The translations under genes were made by a program, and so were the position numbers. Source: Octopus vulgaris (lineage: Eukaryota). From it: a stretch of DNA of 64,000 nt. Under the pieces are notes generated by a model. That model was given only the letters and a program-made list of their open reading frames with translations. It was not told the DNA's origin and searched no databases. Of this stretch, positions 3,258-51,834 are shown one piece after another (the stretch's first letter is position 1; every line of letters starts with the position of its first letter). The DNA lies in the NCBI GenBank assembly GCA_951406725.2, contig OX597823.1, forward strand, positions 114,080,001-114,144,000, read 5' to 3'.

Positions 3258-3641
3258 GTGGAAGCACTCCATCGGTTACGACGACGAGGGTTCCGGTTGA
3301 TCCGATCAACGGAACAGCCTACTCGCGAAATTAACGTGTAAGTGGCTGAGCACTCCACAGACACGTGTACCCTTAACGTATTTCTCGGGGATATTCAGCG
3401 TGACACAGAGAGTGACAAGGCCGGCCCTTTGAAATACAGGTACAACAGAAACAGGAAGTAAGAGTGAGAGAAGGTTGTGGTGAAAGAGTACAGCAGGGAT
3501 CACCACCATCCCTGTCAGAGCCTCGTGGAGCTTTAGGTGTTTTCGCTCAATAAACACTCACAACGCCCGGTCTGGGAATCGAAACCGCGATCCTACGACC
3601 GCGAGGTCGCTGCCCTAACCACTGGGCCATTGCGCCTCCAC
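3258..3641 (-). mobile_element. tRNA-derived SINE family C, full length with target-site duplication (TSD)
   Basis: Minus strand starts GTGGAGGCGCAATGGCCCAGTGGTTAGGG (A box) ... GGTTTCGATTCCC (B box). 12-bp TSD CATACATACAAT at 3246-3257 and 3642-3653. Its 5' ~310 bp match 61323-61636. Confidence 0.9.
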
Positions 3642-9793: not shown

Positions 9794-10393
9794 GTCGGTG
9801 AGCTGGCAGAAGCGTTAGCACGCCGGGAGAAATGTGTAGCGGTATTTCGCTTCCCGTTACGTTCTGAGTTCAAATTCCGCCGAGGTCCACTTTACCTTTT
9901 ATCCCTTCCGGGTCGATAAATTAAGTACCAGTTACGCACCGGGGTCGATATAATCGACTTAATCCGTTTGTTTGTCCTCTCTGTGTTTAGCCCCTTTTGG
10001 GTAGTAAAGAAATAGAAATAGGTATTTCGACAGCCGGTACGTTCTGGATTCAAATTCTGCCGAGGTCGACTTTGCCTTTCATCCTTTCGGAGTCGATAAA
10101 TTAATTACCAATTACGCACTGGGGTCGATATAATCGACTTAATCCGTTTGTCTGTCCTTGTTTGTCCTCTCTGTGTTTAGCCCCTTGTGGGTAGTAACGA
10201 AATAGAAATAGATATTTCGTCTGCCTTTACGTTCTGGGTTCAAATTCTGCCGAGGTCGACTTTGCCTTTTATCCTTCGGAGTCGATAAATTAATTACCAG
10301 TTACGCACTGGGGTCGATGAAATCTACTTAATCCGTTTGTCTGTCTTTGTTTGTCCTCTCTATGTTTAGCCCCTTGTGGGTAGTAAAGAAATA
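9794..10393 (+). mobile_element. SINE family B, trimer of ~180-bp units
   Basis: Three tandem units GTATTTCG...GTAAAGAAATAG. GGTATTTATTCTT flanks the array at 9777-9789 and 10394-10406. Confidence 0.9.
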
Positions 10394-10949
10394 GGTATTT
10401 ATTCTTCGTTTTTACGTTCTGTGTTCAAGTGATAATGGGATAAACTTTGTGTTTTTTGTTGATAAAATAAGATAACTGTACCAACACGCATCTGATTTAT
10501 GTGACACAATAGAAGTAAATTAACGCCAAACTGTGGGAATCCAACGAAGATTGGAGCGGTCCATCAGCTGTAATAAATACCCTGCTATGATATCACCATT
10601 GTATAGTTATTTCACTCTATATTATAGACAACTCTCTTCCGCACCTGGCTCCAATAGCAAGAATAATGCAAATAGAAATGACGAATTCGATACAGAATAT
10701 TTTGGTTAATAGATGTAGATGATCTCACGCGCTGCTTTAAATCAGTTTTAACGAACATGTATCATACCTTTATTATATAGCACACGTACTGAAATGAAAA
10801 AATGCAGTTGATTTCTTGATGTAATCCTTAACGGATGTTCGAGCCAATGCAGTCCTATTGCTTTTGAAAAATACAGTAGATTATATGGACTTTGATTAGA
10901 TTTTATTTTAAGGATCTCGAAGGTCGAAAGATTAACTTGGTTTCTGCAG

Positions 10950-19707: not shown

Positions 19708-20120
19708 AGGCGGCGAGCTGGCAGAAACGTTAGCGCGCCGGGCGAAATGCGTAATGGTATTTCGTCTGTCGTTACGTTCTGAGTTCAAATTCTACCGAGG
19801 TCGACGTTGCCTTTCATCCTCTCGGGGTCGATAAATAAAGTACCAGTTTCGCACTGGGCTGATGTAATCGACTTAATACCTTTGTCTGTCCTTGTTTGTC
19901 CTCTCTGTGTTTAGCCCCTTGTGGGTAGTAAAGAAATAGGTATTTCGTCTGCCGTTACGTTCTGAGTTCAAATTCCACCGAGGTCGACTTTGCCTTTCAT
20001 CCTCTCGGGGTCGATAAATAAAGTACCAGTTTCGCACTGGGTTGATGTAATCGACTTAATCCCTTTGTCTGTCCTTGTTTGTCCCCTTTGTGTTTAGCCC
20101 CTTGTGGGTAGTAAAGAAAT
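19708..20120 (+). mobile_element. SINE family B, dimer
   Basis: Head plus two near-identical ~180-bp units, directly after a (CA)n tract. Confidence 0.9.
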
Positions 20121-20941
20121 ATATATATGTATGCCGGTATATATATATATATATGCCGGTATATATACTGTGTGAGTGTGTGTATTTAATGAGTTTAGCA
20201 TGAAGGTTTTGATGTATATACCTTAGGGAATAAGTAAATTTCTCCTTCATATTCAGAGAGTGATGGCGAAAGTGAGAAAGATTTGTATAAATTCATATAC
20301 GACAATGGAAGCAACAGACATGAGCGGCAAGTTCTTAAGATCTTTGTAATTTCAAAAGAAGATAACCTAGAACCATTATTAGTCATCGAAGTCTTTTCGG
20401 ATTTCCCTGTGAAGTTAGTATATGGAATATACCATTTCTCAATTCTGACTTTAATAATCTATATATTCTAAAAAATATATGTAATGAATGAATGTTAATT
20501 GGAAGGTAAATAACTAGTAAAGAAAGAAATATGAGAGAAGTTGTAATGAATTTGAAGACAAGATAAGAATCGAATGATAATCGTGAAAACAGAAAATGAT
20601 CTGCGAGAAAGAAGCGAAGAAAATGGAAGAAGGAATAACTGAGAAGTTGGCAAAAGAAAGGTTTGGAAGTAAAATACTATAAACTTCAAGAATAGTTTAC
20701 TGAGAAATAAGATGTCGAAACTGTATAAAATATAATGAAATGTATTGAAGACTAGTAAAAAGAGGGAGAGAAAAGAAACATACATATAAATAAATAAATA
20801 TATATATATATATGTGTGTGTATGTATATATATAATTTGCGAAGGTGTCATTAATTCTATTATTATCCAATGTAACTATGTTAAAAATGATATTAACAGA
20901 ATCAATGGCACAGGCGATAGCAGGCCAAAAATTAGCATTAA

Positions 20942-22121: not shown

Positions 22122-22532
22122 AGCTGGCGAGCGTGCAGAATCGTCTGCACACCGGGCGAAATGCTCAGCGGTATTCCCTCTGCCGTTACGTTGTGAGTTC
22201 AAATTCCGCCGAGGTCGCCTTTGCCTTTCATTCTTTCGGGATCGATAAATTAAATACCAGTTACTGGGGTCGATATAATCGTCTTAATCCGTTTGTCTGT
22301 CCTTGTTTGTCCTCTCTGTGTTTAGCCCCTTGTGGGTAGTAAAGAAACAGGTATTTCGTCTGCGGTTACGTTCTGAGTTCAAATTCCGCCGAGGTCGACT
22401 TTGCCTTTCATCATTTCGGATCGATGAAATAAGTAACAGTTACGCACTGGGGTCGATATTGTCGACTTGATCCGTTTGTCTGTCCTTGAATGTCCCCTCT
22501 GTGAGTAGCCCCTTGTGGGTAGTAAAGAAATA
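22122..22532 (+). mobile_element. SINE family B, dimer
   Basis: Head plus two units, as in the other family B copies. Confidence 0.88.
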
Positions 22533-26112: not shown

Positions 26113-28844
26113 CTTATGTTATGCAAATACATTTCACTTAACCCTGGAATTTTTACCTTTATAAACGGCTGTAGTATCCTTAGCACTTACCTGAATTTTT
26201 GCTACCTGATAGCTATTTATTTTTTTTTCCTTTTTATTTGAACACATTGAAAAAATATACATATATTTATATACATACATATATATACGCACTCCGATTT
26301 TTCTATTCATATGTGTGTGTATATGCATGTGTGTGTGTCTGTAGATAGAGGAAGAGGAGGACGAAAATATGATGATGATGAGGAGGAGGAGGAGGAGGGT
26401 GACGACGATGATAAAGAAATGATAGCATTCATATTTTATCGACATCACAATGAAGATAGGCGATGTTCACATTTGCGGGATTTGGACCAAATGCTAACAG
26501 ATCTGGTACAAGTCTCTGAAAATGCATTCAACCCGAAGATCTTCTATTTCACAGCAGTTAAATTATAAATCGATTATGCATATATACACACATATATATA
26601 TGTGTGATTATTCACCCACAGATTATATGTAAATATGTGTTTGTATGGTGTGCGTATGTTTGTATATATACATGTAATCAGTATTTGAATGCTTACACAC
26701 ACACACACACACACGCACACACACATATACTTGCATGCACATACATATGCATACATATATGCATACGTGTGTGTACCTTCATTTTGTCCCTTTTTTTCCC
26801 TCTTTTATTCATGTTTTTCTTTTGTCAGTTTTCTACCCATTGAATGATATTTCGATTCCCTATAACTCCTGTATTTGACAGCTTTACAATCCCAGAATTA
26901 AACATATTAAAATACAAAACATAGATAATTTAATATATGATAATATCTTCCCCCACCCACCCCCGAAACTCTTTCATCTCTTCACCTTCCATTTTTCTGC
27001 CAATAACCTCTCCATCGATCTAATCTATTTACACAGGAAAAATAGAATAATTCCTTTTTAGTTTTAGTTCTTTGACTACTACATTAACTTAAAGATCTGT
27101 AGAATCATACGTTTGAAGTCGATAAATATGTTTGGTGTTGGAATATATTGAGATATGCTTCCATCTCCTTATGTATGTTATCTTCTTCCTGCATATATAT
27201 TCTTCCATAGGTTCGTGTTTGCAATTCGATTGATGTTTTTGTGTGTATATATCTTCCTATAGTTTTCATTAAGTAGGGATTAATTTATCTTGACTATTTT
27301 CCCTTTTGATCCTAATATTCTTTTTGGCTGTGATAGATGATGTGTATCTCCTGTATATAATAGATGCTGGATATATGTATGTACATTATCTAATTAGTAT
27401 TGGATCTTGATATTCATATGATGTCCCAGCAATTCGTACTTTGTTTTAACTCATGTTATTATTGAGTTCTTAACTATAATATATATATATATATATATAT
27501 ATTATACTGGTGTTATCAACATAGCAATAGAAAGCTAATGTGTGAATTCATAATCTCCACGTATGTATGCGAAATCATAAACATTGAGGCACATAGACTC
27601 ACCAAAAGTTTTAGACTGCTTTTCAAATTCAATTTTAAACTTGTGGAAAACCCGTGTTTTAATCTTCCTACTGTGAAAGTCTCTGTTTGGTTGTTGAGTT
27701 TATCTGCTGGATGGTGATCATGATGAAAATGTTGATGATGATCCGTCTTCATTCCCACACGATATGTGAATTACTGATCGTCTGCATAACACAGGATATT
27801 TAGAAGTGTCTGGAAGTCTACTCACTTCCAAATATTACTTGAAATCTTAAATGTTTTGAAAAATCTGTGACAAATGTGAAAAATAATACCTCGAAGAAAT
27901 TGGCATTTGGGTTAACATCATCTTCCTTGGCGTCCTTAAACTAGTATGAATATAGGGATGACCACGATTTATTAAATCTTCGGGCTATCGGCTAAAGAGA
28001 AGGTAAACACGAGTGCTAAATAACGCTAGACAAGGAGTTTTAATACACTACATAATAACGCGTCACGGACAACACAGAACTCATACATATCAGAATAATT
28101 CCTCTCACAAAGAAATAAAATCACTGAGTTCTCAGTAATTAATGCGAAAATGCCATTTCCGACCAGCAACAAAACTCCACACAACGTACGATTATCCTTT
28201 CTGGGAATTTGATCACTTGAAAGTTAACTGAAAGGTAATCGAGACTCACAGAAAATAATTGTTTAAAAATCGATATGGCCTTTTCAGTCTGCTCAATGTG
28301 GCCAGCGGAGCTGATATCGGTACAAGTGCATATTTCTTTAACCATATTTCCGAATTGTCCTAAACCTACTTTGAGCTCAGCGGCTGGTTAATGATAACAT
28401 TTTCTATGAGAGACCAGAAGCTGAATTTGACATTCTACAAATCCCTTTTCATGTGCGGGTTGGGATACTCTTCACGGCTAAAGTCTCCTCGAAGCTCGTG
28501 GGTTTAAATATAAGTTTAGAGATTGGAAAAAAATCGTTTACCCGAAATGTAAACAATATCAGAGAGTATTGGAAATATTACTGTTTATACAAATCATGGT
28601 ATATCGACAAGGATACACTATAAAATACATGTTTGAGTGTAAGTCGAGATATCCGGCACAAAATAGGGAAGTGAAACCACTAAAGCATTAGAAAGTCTAT
28701 GTTAACCGAATTCATCCACCTTCAAACACACGTAAGGAAATATTCAGTCACAACTTGACATTCAAAGGTCATTTGTTGTAGAGTAGCCTATTACAACTAC
28801 AACCAAAGTTGACAAAATTTTTTCATTAAACTTTAAAATATACC

Positions 28845-29434
28845 TATTTCTTTACTACCCACAAGGGGCTAAACACAGAGGGGACTAACAAGGACAGACA
28901 AACGGATTAAGTTGATTATATCGACCCCAGTGCGTAACTGGTGCTTATTTAATCGACCCCGAAAGGATGAAAGGCAAAGTCGATCTCGGCGGAATTTGAA
29001 CTCTGAACGTAACGGTAGACGAAATACCCATTTCTTTACTACTCACAAGGGGCTAAAAATAGAGAGGGCAAACAAGGACGGACAAACGGATTAGGTCGAT
29101 TATGTCGACCGCAGTGCATAACTGGTACTTATTTAATCGACTCCGAAAGGATGAAAGACAAAGTCGGAATTTGAACTCTGAACGTAACGGCAGACGAAAT
29201 ACCTATTTCTTTATTACCCACAAGGGGCTAAACATAGAAGGGACAAACAAGAACAGACATAGGGATTAAGTCGATTACATCGACCCCAGTGCGTAACTGC
29301 TACTTAATTTATCGACCCCGAAAGGATGAAAGGTAAAGTTGACCTCGGCGGAATTTGAACTCACAACGTAACGGCAGACGAAATACCGCTAAGCATTTCG
29401 CACGGCGTGCTAACGATTCAGCTAGCTCACAGCC
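28845..29434 (-). mobile_element. SINE family B, trimer, with 17-bp TSD
   Basis: Three reverse-oriented units. TSD AAACTTTAAAATATACC at 28828-28844 and 29435-29451. Confidence 0.92.
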
Positions 29435-31285
29435 AAACTTTAAAATATACCGATAGAATATTGAAATCTAATATTGTGGGTGACACTGCATGCTTTTGTT
29501 TATATAACTAATAAGGCATAATTCAAAAGAATGAAAGCAACAAAAGTGCACAGAGACAAAGCTATGCAGAGTTCTTGCTTAGCTTGAAGCTGCCGATAGC
29601 AATCGTTTGTGTGCATAGTTAAGATAAATACACTTAGTAAAAATTTTAGCTTACGCTTCTATACATATTTACTATACGGTGTGCTGTGAATCGAAACCAA
29701 CAACTTCAATACAACATAATATTCTACACAGTATACAGTGGCGGGGGGGGGATAAATATTCGTAGATGTCAAAATTCTTTATTTATTTAATTTCTAATGA
29801 ACATAAATGGGATATACCAATACTATATATGCATACACATGCATAAACTAAGAATATGCAAATTATTTTAACAGTATTTTGTGGCATAGAAAATCATAAA
29901 TTTATTCTGTACGAATACACTTTCTGCCCTAAACATTTGTAATTGTATATAAATTCCTTAGTTACTATAATTTATGAGTTTCTTTTGCATATATTCTTAG
30001 TTTATGCATGTGTATGCAAATATAGTATTGGTATATCCCATTTATGTTCATTAGAAATTAAATACATAATGAATTTTGACATGTACGAATATTTATTTCC
30101 CCCCACTGAATGTATGTATATCCATATATACGCATACACAAACACACATACACACACTCACACACACACGCATACAAAAAGTGAGAGAGGGAGCGAAAGA
30201 AAGAATGAGAAGGGGAAGAAGGAAGAAAGAAACAAGCAGAAGCAGTTCCCATAACAGTTTATGAAAGATTTCAAAATATGGCGTCCATTACTTGCTGTTA
30301 ATACAAGAGCGCATAGCGTATTGTAATTAAAATATCGCAGGAGAAACTGTGAGAGTAGATGCTTATGTATATGTGTGTCTATGTATATGTTTGTGTGTAT
30401 GTATACGTGCTTATCTCACTGTGACTCTGCTGAAGCGCCCACGCGTGTGTGTGTGTGAGTGTGATAATGTGTTTACGCGTGCAAATGCATGTGTTTGTGA
30501 AGGTGTATCTGTTTTATGGTTATGTACATGGAAATAGAATTACGAAGCTGGATGCTGTGTGATATAAATCAGAGAGCGAAACAACGAATGGACACTTAAG
30601 CTGTGAAAATCAGCTGGCAGCAGCTTTAGTGATGATAAAAACTGTTAGGTAATTGAGAGTAATACCCGCAAGTGGTGTAAGTAGGTGTTGTATAAGAGTA
30701 CAGTGGACTGTATTGAAATCTTTAGGAAGCCAGAGAAGTAAGAGGCAAGGTGGGTGAGAAATAAATTGACCACCGCAGGCGTAGAAACAAGTGTGTTGTG
30801 TGACCGTGTATAAGTTAATACATACTACAAATGGTGTTCTTTACAAAAGCAAAGATCTGCATGCACATACGAAGCGTCACATGTGTATTGATGTGAATAT
30901 GTGACAGTAGGCTCCTCTGGCATTGTTCACCTTCTCTCCACTTCAGTTTTTCTTTCTCTCTCTCTCTTTCTCACTATCTCTTTCTTTCTTTTTTCCCTCT
31001 CTCACTTTCTATCTCTTTCTCTCCAGGTATATGTGCGTGTGTGTGTGTTCATGCGCGTGTGTCTATCTGCCGTATTAACAAGCACATAAGCACATATTTG
31101 CGCCTGCATATATATATATATGTGTGTGTGTGTATGTGTGTGTATACCTGCGTGTATGTATATGTATAGATATATAGATATAGATAGATAGATAGATAGA
31201 AAGATAGATTCAGATGAATATAGAACGTAAGTGGAGGCACCAGAATTTAGTGCAGTACTATCTATACAATTTCAAAGTAAGGTGA

Positions 31286-31360
<75 letters not shown>

Positions 31361-31389
31361 AAATAAGCAACAAGCATATCCAGAGGTAA

Positions 31390-31475
31390 TGCAGTACGAT
31401 CGTTTCATGCAACTCCATTTAATTTTACAATGCAATCATTACATCAATTTAAATGCAGAGCAATCCTCAGTTGCA
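31390..31475 (-). ncRNA. Type I hammerhead ribozyme (predicted)
   Basis: Minus strand TGCAA-CTGAGGA-long stem II-GAAA-CGATCG-TA-CTGCA: intact CUGANGA/GAAA core and GUA cleavage triplet. Confidence 0.7.
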
Positions 31476-32392
31476 CAAAGACATGAAACTTAATTAAATT
31501 AAAACAGATGGACATATTAGTATAATTATACCTAAAATCTCCAAGAAGTTAAGGAGATAGACAAAGAGCAGGCTGCCTTAACACCAGCATAGAAACTACT
31601 AAGCTATCAAGAGGATATACATTGTTACAGACTCTGCCTGTAACTGATTCTTTGTTTTTGTGGAGTCAGTTTTAATTTATAGACTAGTTTATCAAATCCT
31701 TGTGTATCTAGGGCTCAGAGAACAAAAGGCAGTGTCTGTTAGGGGTAGGGTTGAGGGAACAGACAGAAATCATAGTTGGTATAGTCATAAAGATCAACGT
31801 TTATTTGAAGCAATACGTTTATTTGAGGCTTGGTAAACGAAAACATATAACAAGATGTTAGCGGACAATTAAGGGGGTCGCCCACTAGCAGACCATTCAT
31901 AATGAAACAAGGGAAGTCATGTAGTACTAAAGTTAAATTTTATTTTAAACAATGTTGCTATATTGTATACATTTAAAGTTTAGGGTTATCCAGGGGATTA
32001 TTAAGAAGAATATTATAACAAGAGGATAGAAATGTTTGAATACTTTTGAGTATATACCAAACATTTACCACAATAGTGGAAGGAAAAGAAATTATCCAGA
32101 AATAGTTGCCTTGTCTATAGCGGAATACGACCAAGAAATTACTCTTCTCAGTCCTGTAAATTCGGCACCATTTAATAGAGAGAATAATGATAGTTTGAAT
32201 AATAGAAATTTTACTAACTTACTTACTTGTGAAAAAATACCAAATGATATCCAATCCTACAAACCTAACATTTCAAATAATAATAATAATAGAGTATGCC
32301 TCAATAGGAGACAGGATACTAAAATGGGTAAGAAGCGTAGGTTACATAAAAAAAAGTGACGAGGAAAAATGTAATTAAGTACCTTGTCTTTG

Positions 32393-32478
32393 TGCAACTG
32401 AGGATTGCTCTGCATTTAATTTGATGTAAGGATTACATTGTAAAATTAAATGGAGTTGCATGAAACGATCGTACTGCA
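32393..32478 (+). ncRNA. Type I hammerhead ribozyme (predicted)
   Basis: CTGAGGA at 32398-32404; stem II TGCTCTGCATTTAATTT / AAATTAAATGGAGTTGCA; GAAA at 32462-32465; palindromic stem III ACGATCGT; predicted cleavage after A32473; stem I TGCA/TGCA. Confidence 0.72.
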
Positions 32479-32529
32479 TTACCACTGGCTATCGTTGTTG
32501 CTTATTTTGATATATATATATATATATAT

Positions 32530-32600
<71 letters not shown>

Positions 32601-32739
32601 TATATATATATACGTTTCTGCTCCAGCATGGCCACATCAAATGACTGAAACCAGTAAAGGAATAAAAGATTATTTATATATGCACACATATATATATATA
32701 TATACATACATACATATATATAGATATGTATATATGTAT

Positions 32740-50770: not shown

Positions 50771-51187
50771 AGGCGGTGAGCTGGCAGAAACCTTAGCACG
50801 CCGGGCGAAATGCGTTGCCGTATTTCGTCTGCCGTTATGTTCTGAGTTCAAATTCCGCCGAGGTCGACTTTGCCTTTCATCATTTCGGGGTCGATAAATT
50901 AAGTACCAGTTACGCACTGGAGTCGATGTAATCGACTTAATCCGTTTGTCTATCCTTGTTTGTCCCCTCTGTGTTTAGCCCCTTGTGGGTTGTAAAGAAA
51001 TAGGTATTTCGTCTGTCGTTACGTTCTGAGTTCAAATTCCGCCGAGGTCGACTTTGCGTTTCATCCTTTCGGGATCGATAATTTAAGTACCAGTTACACA
51101 GTGTGGTCGATATAATCGACTTAATCCGTTTGTCTCCCCTTGTTTGTCCTCTCTGAGTTTAGCCCCATGTGGGTAGTAAAGAAATAG
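50771..51187 (+). mobile_element. SINE family B, dimer
   Basis: Head plus two units. Confidence 0.9.
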
Positions 51188-51834
51188 TTATTTCACTTTA
51201 ACTGATTTACTAGGGTGCATCACAGAAGCAATAATGTCATACATATGATGAACACACTCTTCCTTATGTAGTATATTTGCCACGGGGCTACTTAAGTTTT
51301 GAAAAGAAAAAAAATACCAGCAATTATATCAATAAGGAAACTAAACATTGTAGTATAACTGTTCTGACTTGCTGATAAGATTCTACTCGGCTGATTAATC
51401 ATTAAAATATCTAAAGTTTAAAAACTTTACTCCAAAACATTAATCACCAGTTTAATTTCTACTCAAATGAGACTGATAAACTCGTCAAAAGAAAAAGAAA
51501 AATCCGACATGATCTTTTAAGATTAGAAACATTAGAACGAGATTATGATTTCTCCTTGGTTCTCTAACACTCTGTCAGATAATCGAAACTTTTGAATCTC
51601 ATTTTGTTTCTTTTCGGGATAACGGAGTTATATTCTAAAAACCTTATCAGCGACTTTCTTATCAAAGAAATGCCAGTAAAACACGAAAGCCGCCAAACTT
51701 TATTTGATATGAGGACAGAATTATAGGCTGTGAGCTTTACGTTTTGTAATAGTAACTTCAAGATTAGCAAAAATGTATTGAGTACTAACTATATGCTAAA
51801 ACTGAAGGTATCATTTGGAAACCAGATTTACCTA

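Follow-up and report, generated by a model that had tools for sequence, protein, structure and literature searches.

The window analysed here is a stretch of 64,000 nucleotides of Octopus vulgaris contig OX597823.1 (positions 114,080,001 to 114,144,000), in which a composite insertion occupies positions 31207-32510. Its most conspicuous features are two inverted arms, at 31358-31500 and 32368-32510, which are complementary at 132 of 143 bases (92% alike). The left arm, on the minus strand, corresponds to the 3' terminus of an inverted copy of a PLE family, and the right arm, on the plus strand, to the 3' terminus of a sense copy without a tail; each carries a type I hammerhead motif. Toward the outer end, each arm presents in order a stem I strand, CUGAGGA, a 57-nt insert, GAAA, ACGAUCGU, A and the second stem I strand, with the 8-mer of stem III being the palindromic ACGAUCGU in both. 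In the left arm (minus strand), the core lies at 31464-31470 and GAAA at 31403-31406, with cleavage predicted after 31395. In the right arm (plus strand), stem I is formed by 32392-32397 and 32474-32479, the core lies at 32398-32404, stem II at 32405-32461, GAAA at 32462-32465 and the palindrome at 32465-32472, with cleavage predicted after 32473. The core elements CUGANGA, GAAA and UH are intact and in type I order in both arms; the original prediction of one motif per strand, comprising CUGAGGA, an unusually long stem II, GAAA, a palindrome and GUA, is thus borne out. Its proposal that the GUA site is closed by stem I holds in part, i.e. GUA is present, but closure is incomplete, as A at position 2.1 lies opposite C1.1 (A·C) in both arms.

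Inward from the left arm, the inverted AT-rich 3' UTR of the PLE family extends over 31501-32107 (minus strand); in other copies, this UTR runs on for more than 1.3 kb beyond the extent seen here. The left arm makes up only the outermost 143 bp of an inverted 3'-end copy that measures 749 bp, and the arms, although inverted as originally described, are not true TIRs. A 265-bp PLE ORF fragment follows at 32105-32369 (plus strand), covering the end of the RT thumb and the start of an Asn-rich linker, and overlapping the left part by GTT and the right arm by AA; the statement that no RT is encoded inside therefore has to be corrected. Between the ORF fragment and the right arm, ∼4.1 kb is absent, as measured on locus L063 (4606 bp minus a 433-bp foreign insert). 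A nuclear signal in the Lys/Arg-rich end of the interior frame was considered and rejected; this end is decayed linker, past which the frames of relatives read on.

On the left, a (TA)35 microsatellite at 31289-31358 separates the arm from a PLE tail of ∼82 bp (31207-31288, minus strand), which is homologous to the tails of other copies. On the right, a (TA)n(GATA)n microsatellite at 32509-32612 is the likely insertion target, given the (TA)n preference of the Hydra clade of PLEs (PMC8557442). The proposed insertion into (TA)n is in keeping with both flanks, but family sequence goes on to the left of (TA)35 in the form of the tail. In tandem copies, and in the intact relative L086, the hammerhead is followed by the same tail block, which leads into the ORF start, whereas (TA)35 intervenes at the focal insertion. 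Such a (TA)35 tract occurs in none of the 28 loci compared, the other tailed copies joining directly; the tract may have expanded in place, or the element may have inserted next to a tail that was already there.

Using a 132-aa RT piece as query, 150 matches were scored of 7061 candidates, some of which lie in frames of 950-1091 aa. Twenty RT-bearing relatives, picked for long frames and a spread of identity, were fetched; they represent five families, the proteins of which are about 50-80% identical to each other, and have open frames of 835-1091 aa and 3' UTRs of 1.5-3 kb. Near-identical genome copies with open frames of 976-1091 aa exist. Full-length relatives carry RW(K/R/A), DKT, YRDD, CxCx5C, CxxC and, at the C terminus, a GIY-YIG-like motif, and a corresponding set (with RW(K/I)) is seen in decayed members of the focal family; by motif, the relatives have a single ORF with RT and a C-terminal endonuclease (YRDD, then V/I-I-Y...Y-x-G near the C terminus). 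Intact relatives read RIRWK or RIRWR and ADKTG, and the decayed copies of the focal family RVRWI and ADKTG or ANKTG; the linker CxCx5C and terminal CxxC read CKCRIKSKC and CQLC in L082, and the former CICRAKSCC in L061. The reported marks of the Hydra clade are RWK, DKT instead of DKG, CxCx5C, CxxC and (TA)n targeting (PMC8557442), and the insertions are likewise of Hydra type, i.e. with a (TA)n target, inverted or tandem 3'-end copies and a one-sided tail. The element thus likely belongs to the Hydra-clade PLEs, judging from motifs read against that paper, with its references compared by eye. The domain and clade assignments rest on motifs because Pfam gave nothing above threshold, neither RT nor GIY-YIG, with seven fragments (the coordinates of that from L080 being unchecked) and two intact ORFs, and a PDB sequence search gave 0 matches even with intact ORFs. 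The single match that a protein search returned, from 103 candidates, is to an uncharacterised protein from Octopus bimaculoides (73% identity).

To place the focal insertion within its family, the whole 1152-bp element was searched against the 2.8-Gb genome and 40 of 2950 candidates were scored; all 40 of these long non-self matches end at or before query base 749. Fetched matches to bases 1-749 go on into other AT-rich family sequence of varying length. With the interior (32090-32400) as query, for which all 35 candidates were scored, the 34 non-self matches of the ORF piece fall within 32105-32375 and none crosses a junction. Comparison of the 60-bp junctions with 111 loci gave no non-focal match across the middle, except one 31-bp hit at 77%. 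The genome copies sharing both ends and the interior that had been anticipated were therefore not found among those scored. The junctions themselves are not specific to the assembly, since a 413-nt contig of run X15 covers both with 3 differences and 3 gaps, unless X15 is the assembly's source run.

Copies of the family are polar, with a fixed 3' terminus and a variable 5' extent; outside the shared terminus, 10 of 28 loci have the tail (∼85 bp) and 18 a microsatellite. Two inverted arms are present at 11 other family loci, with spans of 342-6775 bp and interiors that all differ, in a comparison of about 65 distinct loci, many with only 1.5-kb flanks. Elsewhere, the 265-bp piece is preceded by the RT thumb and followed by more ORF. 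Across 20 extended loci, the order is ORF, long AT-rich 3' UTR, arm and tail, often with an inverted arm or tail on the 5' side; L063, which is 64% identical over aa 87-525 to the intact 980-aa ORF of L082, has the complete form, with inverted arm, ORF, 3' UTR, arm and tail. At L073 and L074, the ORF is joined straight to a truncated arm, as in the focal insertion. Separately, at 32105-32107 and in L073 (oriented position 3520), which are unrelated insertions, the inverted arm joins the ORF at positions that coincide to about 2 bases; with two cases, this may be chance or an RT stall site. An internal direct repeat, with a spacing of about 870 bp and about 73-75% identity, was also observed in the 3' UTR of L017, L013 and L007.

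Taken together, these results argue, with a probability of roughly 0.9, that the focal insertion is a rearranged, protein-dead PLE insertion, made up of an inverted 3' end, an ORF piece and a second 3' end, the junctions of which occur in no other copy examined. With similar assurance, we regard the locus as a known kind of PLE insertion product: inverted 5'-truncated copies are reported to flank PLE insertions, with the tail at one end (PMC8557442), and Penelope-13_HM has a 5'-truncated inverted copy, with its hammerhead listed on both strands in the same paper.

The likely route of insertion is modelled on the mechanism published for PAc, a Poseidon element of the lizard Anolis (Frangieh et al. 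2024, PMC11167929), for which cleavage and extension of both strands at AT-rich targets are described, together with two RT start sites on the RNA, which yield the tail. Both-strand extension and two start sites would explain the outward-facing ends and the single tail of the focal insertion. By analogy, the GIY-YIG endonuclease of the element would nick both strands of the (TA)n/(GATA)n repeat, and RT would initiate at each nick on a single RNA, close to its 3' end, with one start site taking in the tail and the other not. The left cDNA would extend for about 0.83 kb; the right would keep 143 nt of the 3' end, lose about 4.1 kb by a template jump or a later deletion, and resume in the ORF for 265 nt, the two cDNAs then being joined at overlaps of 2-3 bases. 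Any target-site duplication is masked by the microsatellite flanks. As each 3' end bears the family hammerhead, the opposite-strand pair follows from this geometry, with no function of its own needed; in active relatives, the motif probably cuts a tandem precursor RNA, either as a dimer or with the element's protein. PAc belongs to a different clade and differs in that its ribozyme overlaps the ORF start and cuts only with protein present; this ribozyme is reported to be dispensable for insertion in vitro (PMC11167929).

The focal arms have five rare variants in common. Two of them fall in a 31-mer that occurs at 3 sites in the genome, two of which are the focal arms, whereas the family-majority version of this 31-mer occurs at 609. 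Rare variants common to both arms suggest one insertion event in which one template was copied twice, which is the simplest reading. In the opposing proposal, the inverted pair goes back to two PLE insertions that arose independently, as was also envisaged for the arms originally, or to a deletion or gene conversion that later took place between such insertions; it could draw on the 12 private differences from the family majority in the right arm versus 2 in the left (8 and 2 when counting from 32381 onward, inside the 143-bp arm), on the separation of the tail from the left arm by (TA)35, and on the reported tendency of PLEs to land beside older copies (PMC6765202). Given the shared variants, with the 31-mer at only one other site, and the presence of one tail per unit, which is the published signature of a single event (PMC8557442), we consider such independent origins improbable.

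The principal claim of the original prediction was a MITE-like, ribozyme-capped, non-autonomous element with inverted termini, copied as a 1.15-kb unit by a PLE. Both ends do stop at the same family-terminus base and both have the hammerhead motif, and retrozymes have been argued to derive from PLEs (bioRxiv 10.64898/2026.07.22.740005). Metazoan non-LTR retrozymes (PMC7229834; bioRxiv 2026.07.22.740005) are likewise non-coding, PLE-linked and equipped with type I hammerheads, but are described as 150-450-bp head-to-tail tandem repeats with circular RNAs, whereas the focal locus is inverted, single-copy and contains ORF sequence. There is one motif per strand and no tandem unit at the locus, and a transcript would have one sense motif with an antisense partner, as against the tandem sense motifs of retrozymes. 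No second copy was detected, as none of the 34 interior holders crosses a junction, the 111 loci lack a full junction match and all 40 scored whole-element matches stop by base 749; moreover, the interior consists of PLE ORF and UTR. The claim of a 1.15-kb mobile unit is accordingly abandoned as highly improbable, while the link to PLEs and the identity of the hammerhead, which formed part of the same prediction, are upheld by the conserved core and stems and by the RT-bearing relatives. Under another reading, the element would be a TA-targeting DNA-transposon MITE that resembles a hammerhead by coincidence; this would account for inverted ends next to TA, but can be dismissed as barely credible, as most family copies are single-ended and 5'-truncated, the same end is attached to RT ORFs, and core bases are kept and stems covary over five families.

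The case that the hammerhead is a genuine family feature is made by its conservation. A covariance model built from 27 family arms found the motif in 20 of 20 RT-bearing relatives (E values of 1e-25 to 0.84, the weakest being confirmed by reading of the core), and same-family hammerheads lie on opposite strands in 8 of these 20. All five families keep CUGANGA, GAAA and UA, with A, G, U or C at N7, and their stems change in step. For stem I, 33 of 35 pairs are Watson-Crick in seven family or subfamily representatives, compared with 60% when strands are crossed, and 12 of 5040 permutations reach 33/35; for the base of stem II, the values are 20 of 21 pairs, 59% and 24 of 5040 permutations. Because the representatives are related, these permutation counts are not strict probabilities. 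Covariation inside the focal family is slight (1 of 35 pairs altered on both sides). The 8-mer of stem III is self-complementary in all seven representatives, with −5.8 to −10 kcal/mol as a dimer; as a monomer, stem III is unstable (3 bp with a 2-nt loop), this being the usual dimer design of PLEs. Retention of core bases and stem pairing across five diverged families argues that the motif has not arisen by chance.

The most distinctive feature of the motif is its stem II insert, which is 48-60 nt in all five families and all 20 relatives. It folds better than shuffled sequence in all nine cases tested, strongly so in only three (z −1.25 to −5.5). Of separate note, private changes in the right arm at 32420, 32430 and 32435 give its distal stem II hairpin a z of −4.1, versus −1.9 for the family form; these stabilising changes are probably chance. 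A search against Rfam, close to the check that had been put forward, yielded 25 matches at E ≤ 5 for the focal region and 14 for L092, none of which is a hammerhead, the matches at both loci being microsatellite-driven or sub-threshold. No description of the long-stem-II variant was found in the literature searched, mostly non-subscription papers, and as far as that literature shows, this is a known ribozyme in a form not described before. Since Rfam missed the long stem II and the published PLE search used a core spacer of 7-17 nt (PMC8557442), counts of PLE ribozymes may be too low; at least 609 exact copies of the majority 31-mer come from the focal family alone. In addition, downstream of a PLE at L083 (3217-3317, minus strand), a further hammerhead motif was observed in which stem II measures 43 nt, the palindrome of stem III is shorter and the poly(A) hexamer is missing; a second similar motif lies upstream in the same locus.

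Comparison with published hammerheads reveals both kinship and divergence. Within the Hydra clade, Penelope-13_HM in particular shares RWK, DKT and CxCx5C, (TA)n targets and a hammerhead near the 3' end (PMC8557442). Stem II is flanked by U in the way seen here (CUGANGA-U ... U-GAA) in 14 of the 26 Hydra rows of File S2 of that paper, counted by eye; in most rows, stem III is a near-palindrome with a loop of 1-3 nt. By contrast, loop 2 of Hydra elements is published as 3-10 nt, versus the 48-60-nt stem II insert here, and published Hydra elements are mostly shorter than 3 kb, versus the frames of 835-1091 aa and 3' UTRs of 1.5-3 kb of the octopus relatives (PMC8557442). The one published octopus family in that paper, Hydra-1_Obim, has a short hammerhead of another kind, and its protein is clearly distinct when compared by eye. 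Long inserts do have precedents in the same source, i.e. loops of 29-35 nt in two spike-moss PLEs and eight Naiad half-cores 35-50 nt apart. The PLE hammerheads described by Cervera and De la Pena (2014, PMC4209133) are also of type I, with a palindromic stem III thought to be dimeric and low activity in vitro, and opposite-strand pairs 100-700 bp apart are already reported there; their consensus has G10.1-C11.1 and a helix II of 7-8 bp, whereas the motif here has a U·U base and a stem II several times longer.

At the focal locus itself, the hammerhead is probably inactive or of low activity, as predicted from the need of stem III for a second molecule, the A·C closure, misfolding and the duplex between arms. 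Position 2.1 is G in 35 of 36 main-subfamily arms and the 2.1-1.1 pair is G-C in all seven family representatives; A at 2.1 is, however, common to a small subfamily (8 exact matches) and also present in L066, L077 and L018; the substitution may therefore be tolerable and is not necessarily a sign of decay. In the right arm, the most stable fold buries the CUGA box and is 9.8 kcal/mol lower in energy than the active-like fold; the gap is 4.1 kcal/mol in the left arm, versus 3.4 kcal/mol in typical copies. The arm-to-arm duplex is computed at −198 kcal/mol, and a read-through transcript would make the antisense arm first, which could then pair with the sense arm. That transcription in either direction would meet a predicted self-cleaving site is a matter of geometry. 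No RNA dataset is listed for the focal stretch, and contigs of presumed-RNA runs derive from other family copies, none extending over the right junction. For the young relative L086, with four such runs, no poly(A) loose end was seen among the 15 listed of 16, and some contigs continue across the predicted cut; contigs cannot show RNA ends, and this pattern speaks neither for nor against cleavage or polyadenylation. The family-level motif matters modestly, and the focal locus is ordinary PLE debris; intact copies are suitable material for working out the role of PLE hammerheads, as the one examined in a transposition assay was dispensable in vitro.

A hexamer lying 10-30 nt before the site and a GU-rich block beyond it are the marks of a poly(A) site. 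A candidate poly(A) signal, AUUAAA, lies in stem II of both focal arms, 23 nt ahead of the predicted cleavage site (31418-31423, minus strand; 32445-32450, plus strand), and AAUAAA or AUUAAA is present in the 3' strand of stem II in all five families, 17-26 nt before the predicted cut. In shuffled sequences, a hexamer falls at such a place in 0.3-6% of cases for the family representatives and 7-9% for the focal arms, the families sharing ancestry. The hexamer is mostly predicted to be paired. A U/GU-rich block, UUGUUGCUU, follows about 20 nt after the predicted cut in four of the five families; it could instead serve an internal promoter or an RT start site. We tentatively raise the possibility, on balance unlikely, that the long stem II carries the polyadenylation signal of the element, such that host 3'-end processing and ribozyme cleavage would compete for one site. 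If so, the RNA might switch between two states, serving as a message for translation or, when unpolyadenylated, as the template that is copied.

Beyond the focal family, loci L081-L099 (e.g. G000:C4:96405000-96414900, C9:84176900-84186800 and C31:5963100-5973000) comprise young PLE families of the Hydra clade. Their terminal copies, inverted or in tandem, are up to 99-100% identical, and their Asn-rich linkers are long; these families were likely recently active. Elsewhere in the window, a repeat of 183-189 bp forms short tandem arrays, each of 2-3 units, at five places (9843-10394, 19756-20121, 22170-22530, 28840-29387 and 50820-51194); the arrays apparently belong to one dispersed family, presumably a common octopus SINE-like repeat.
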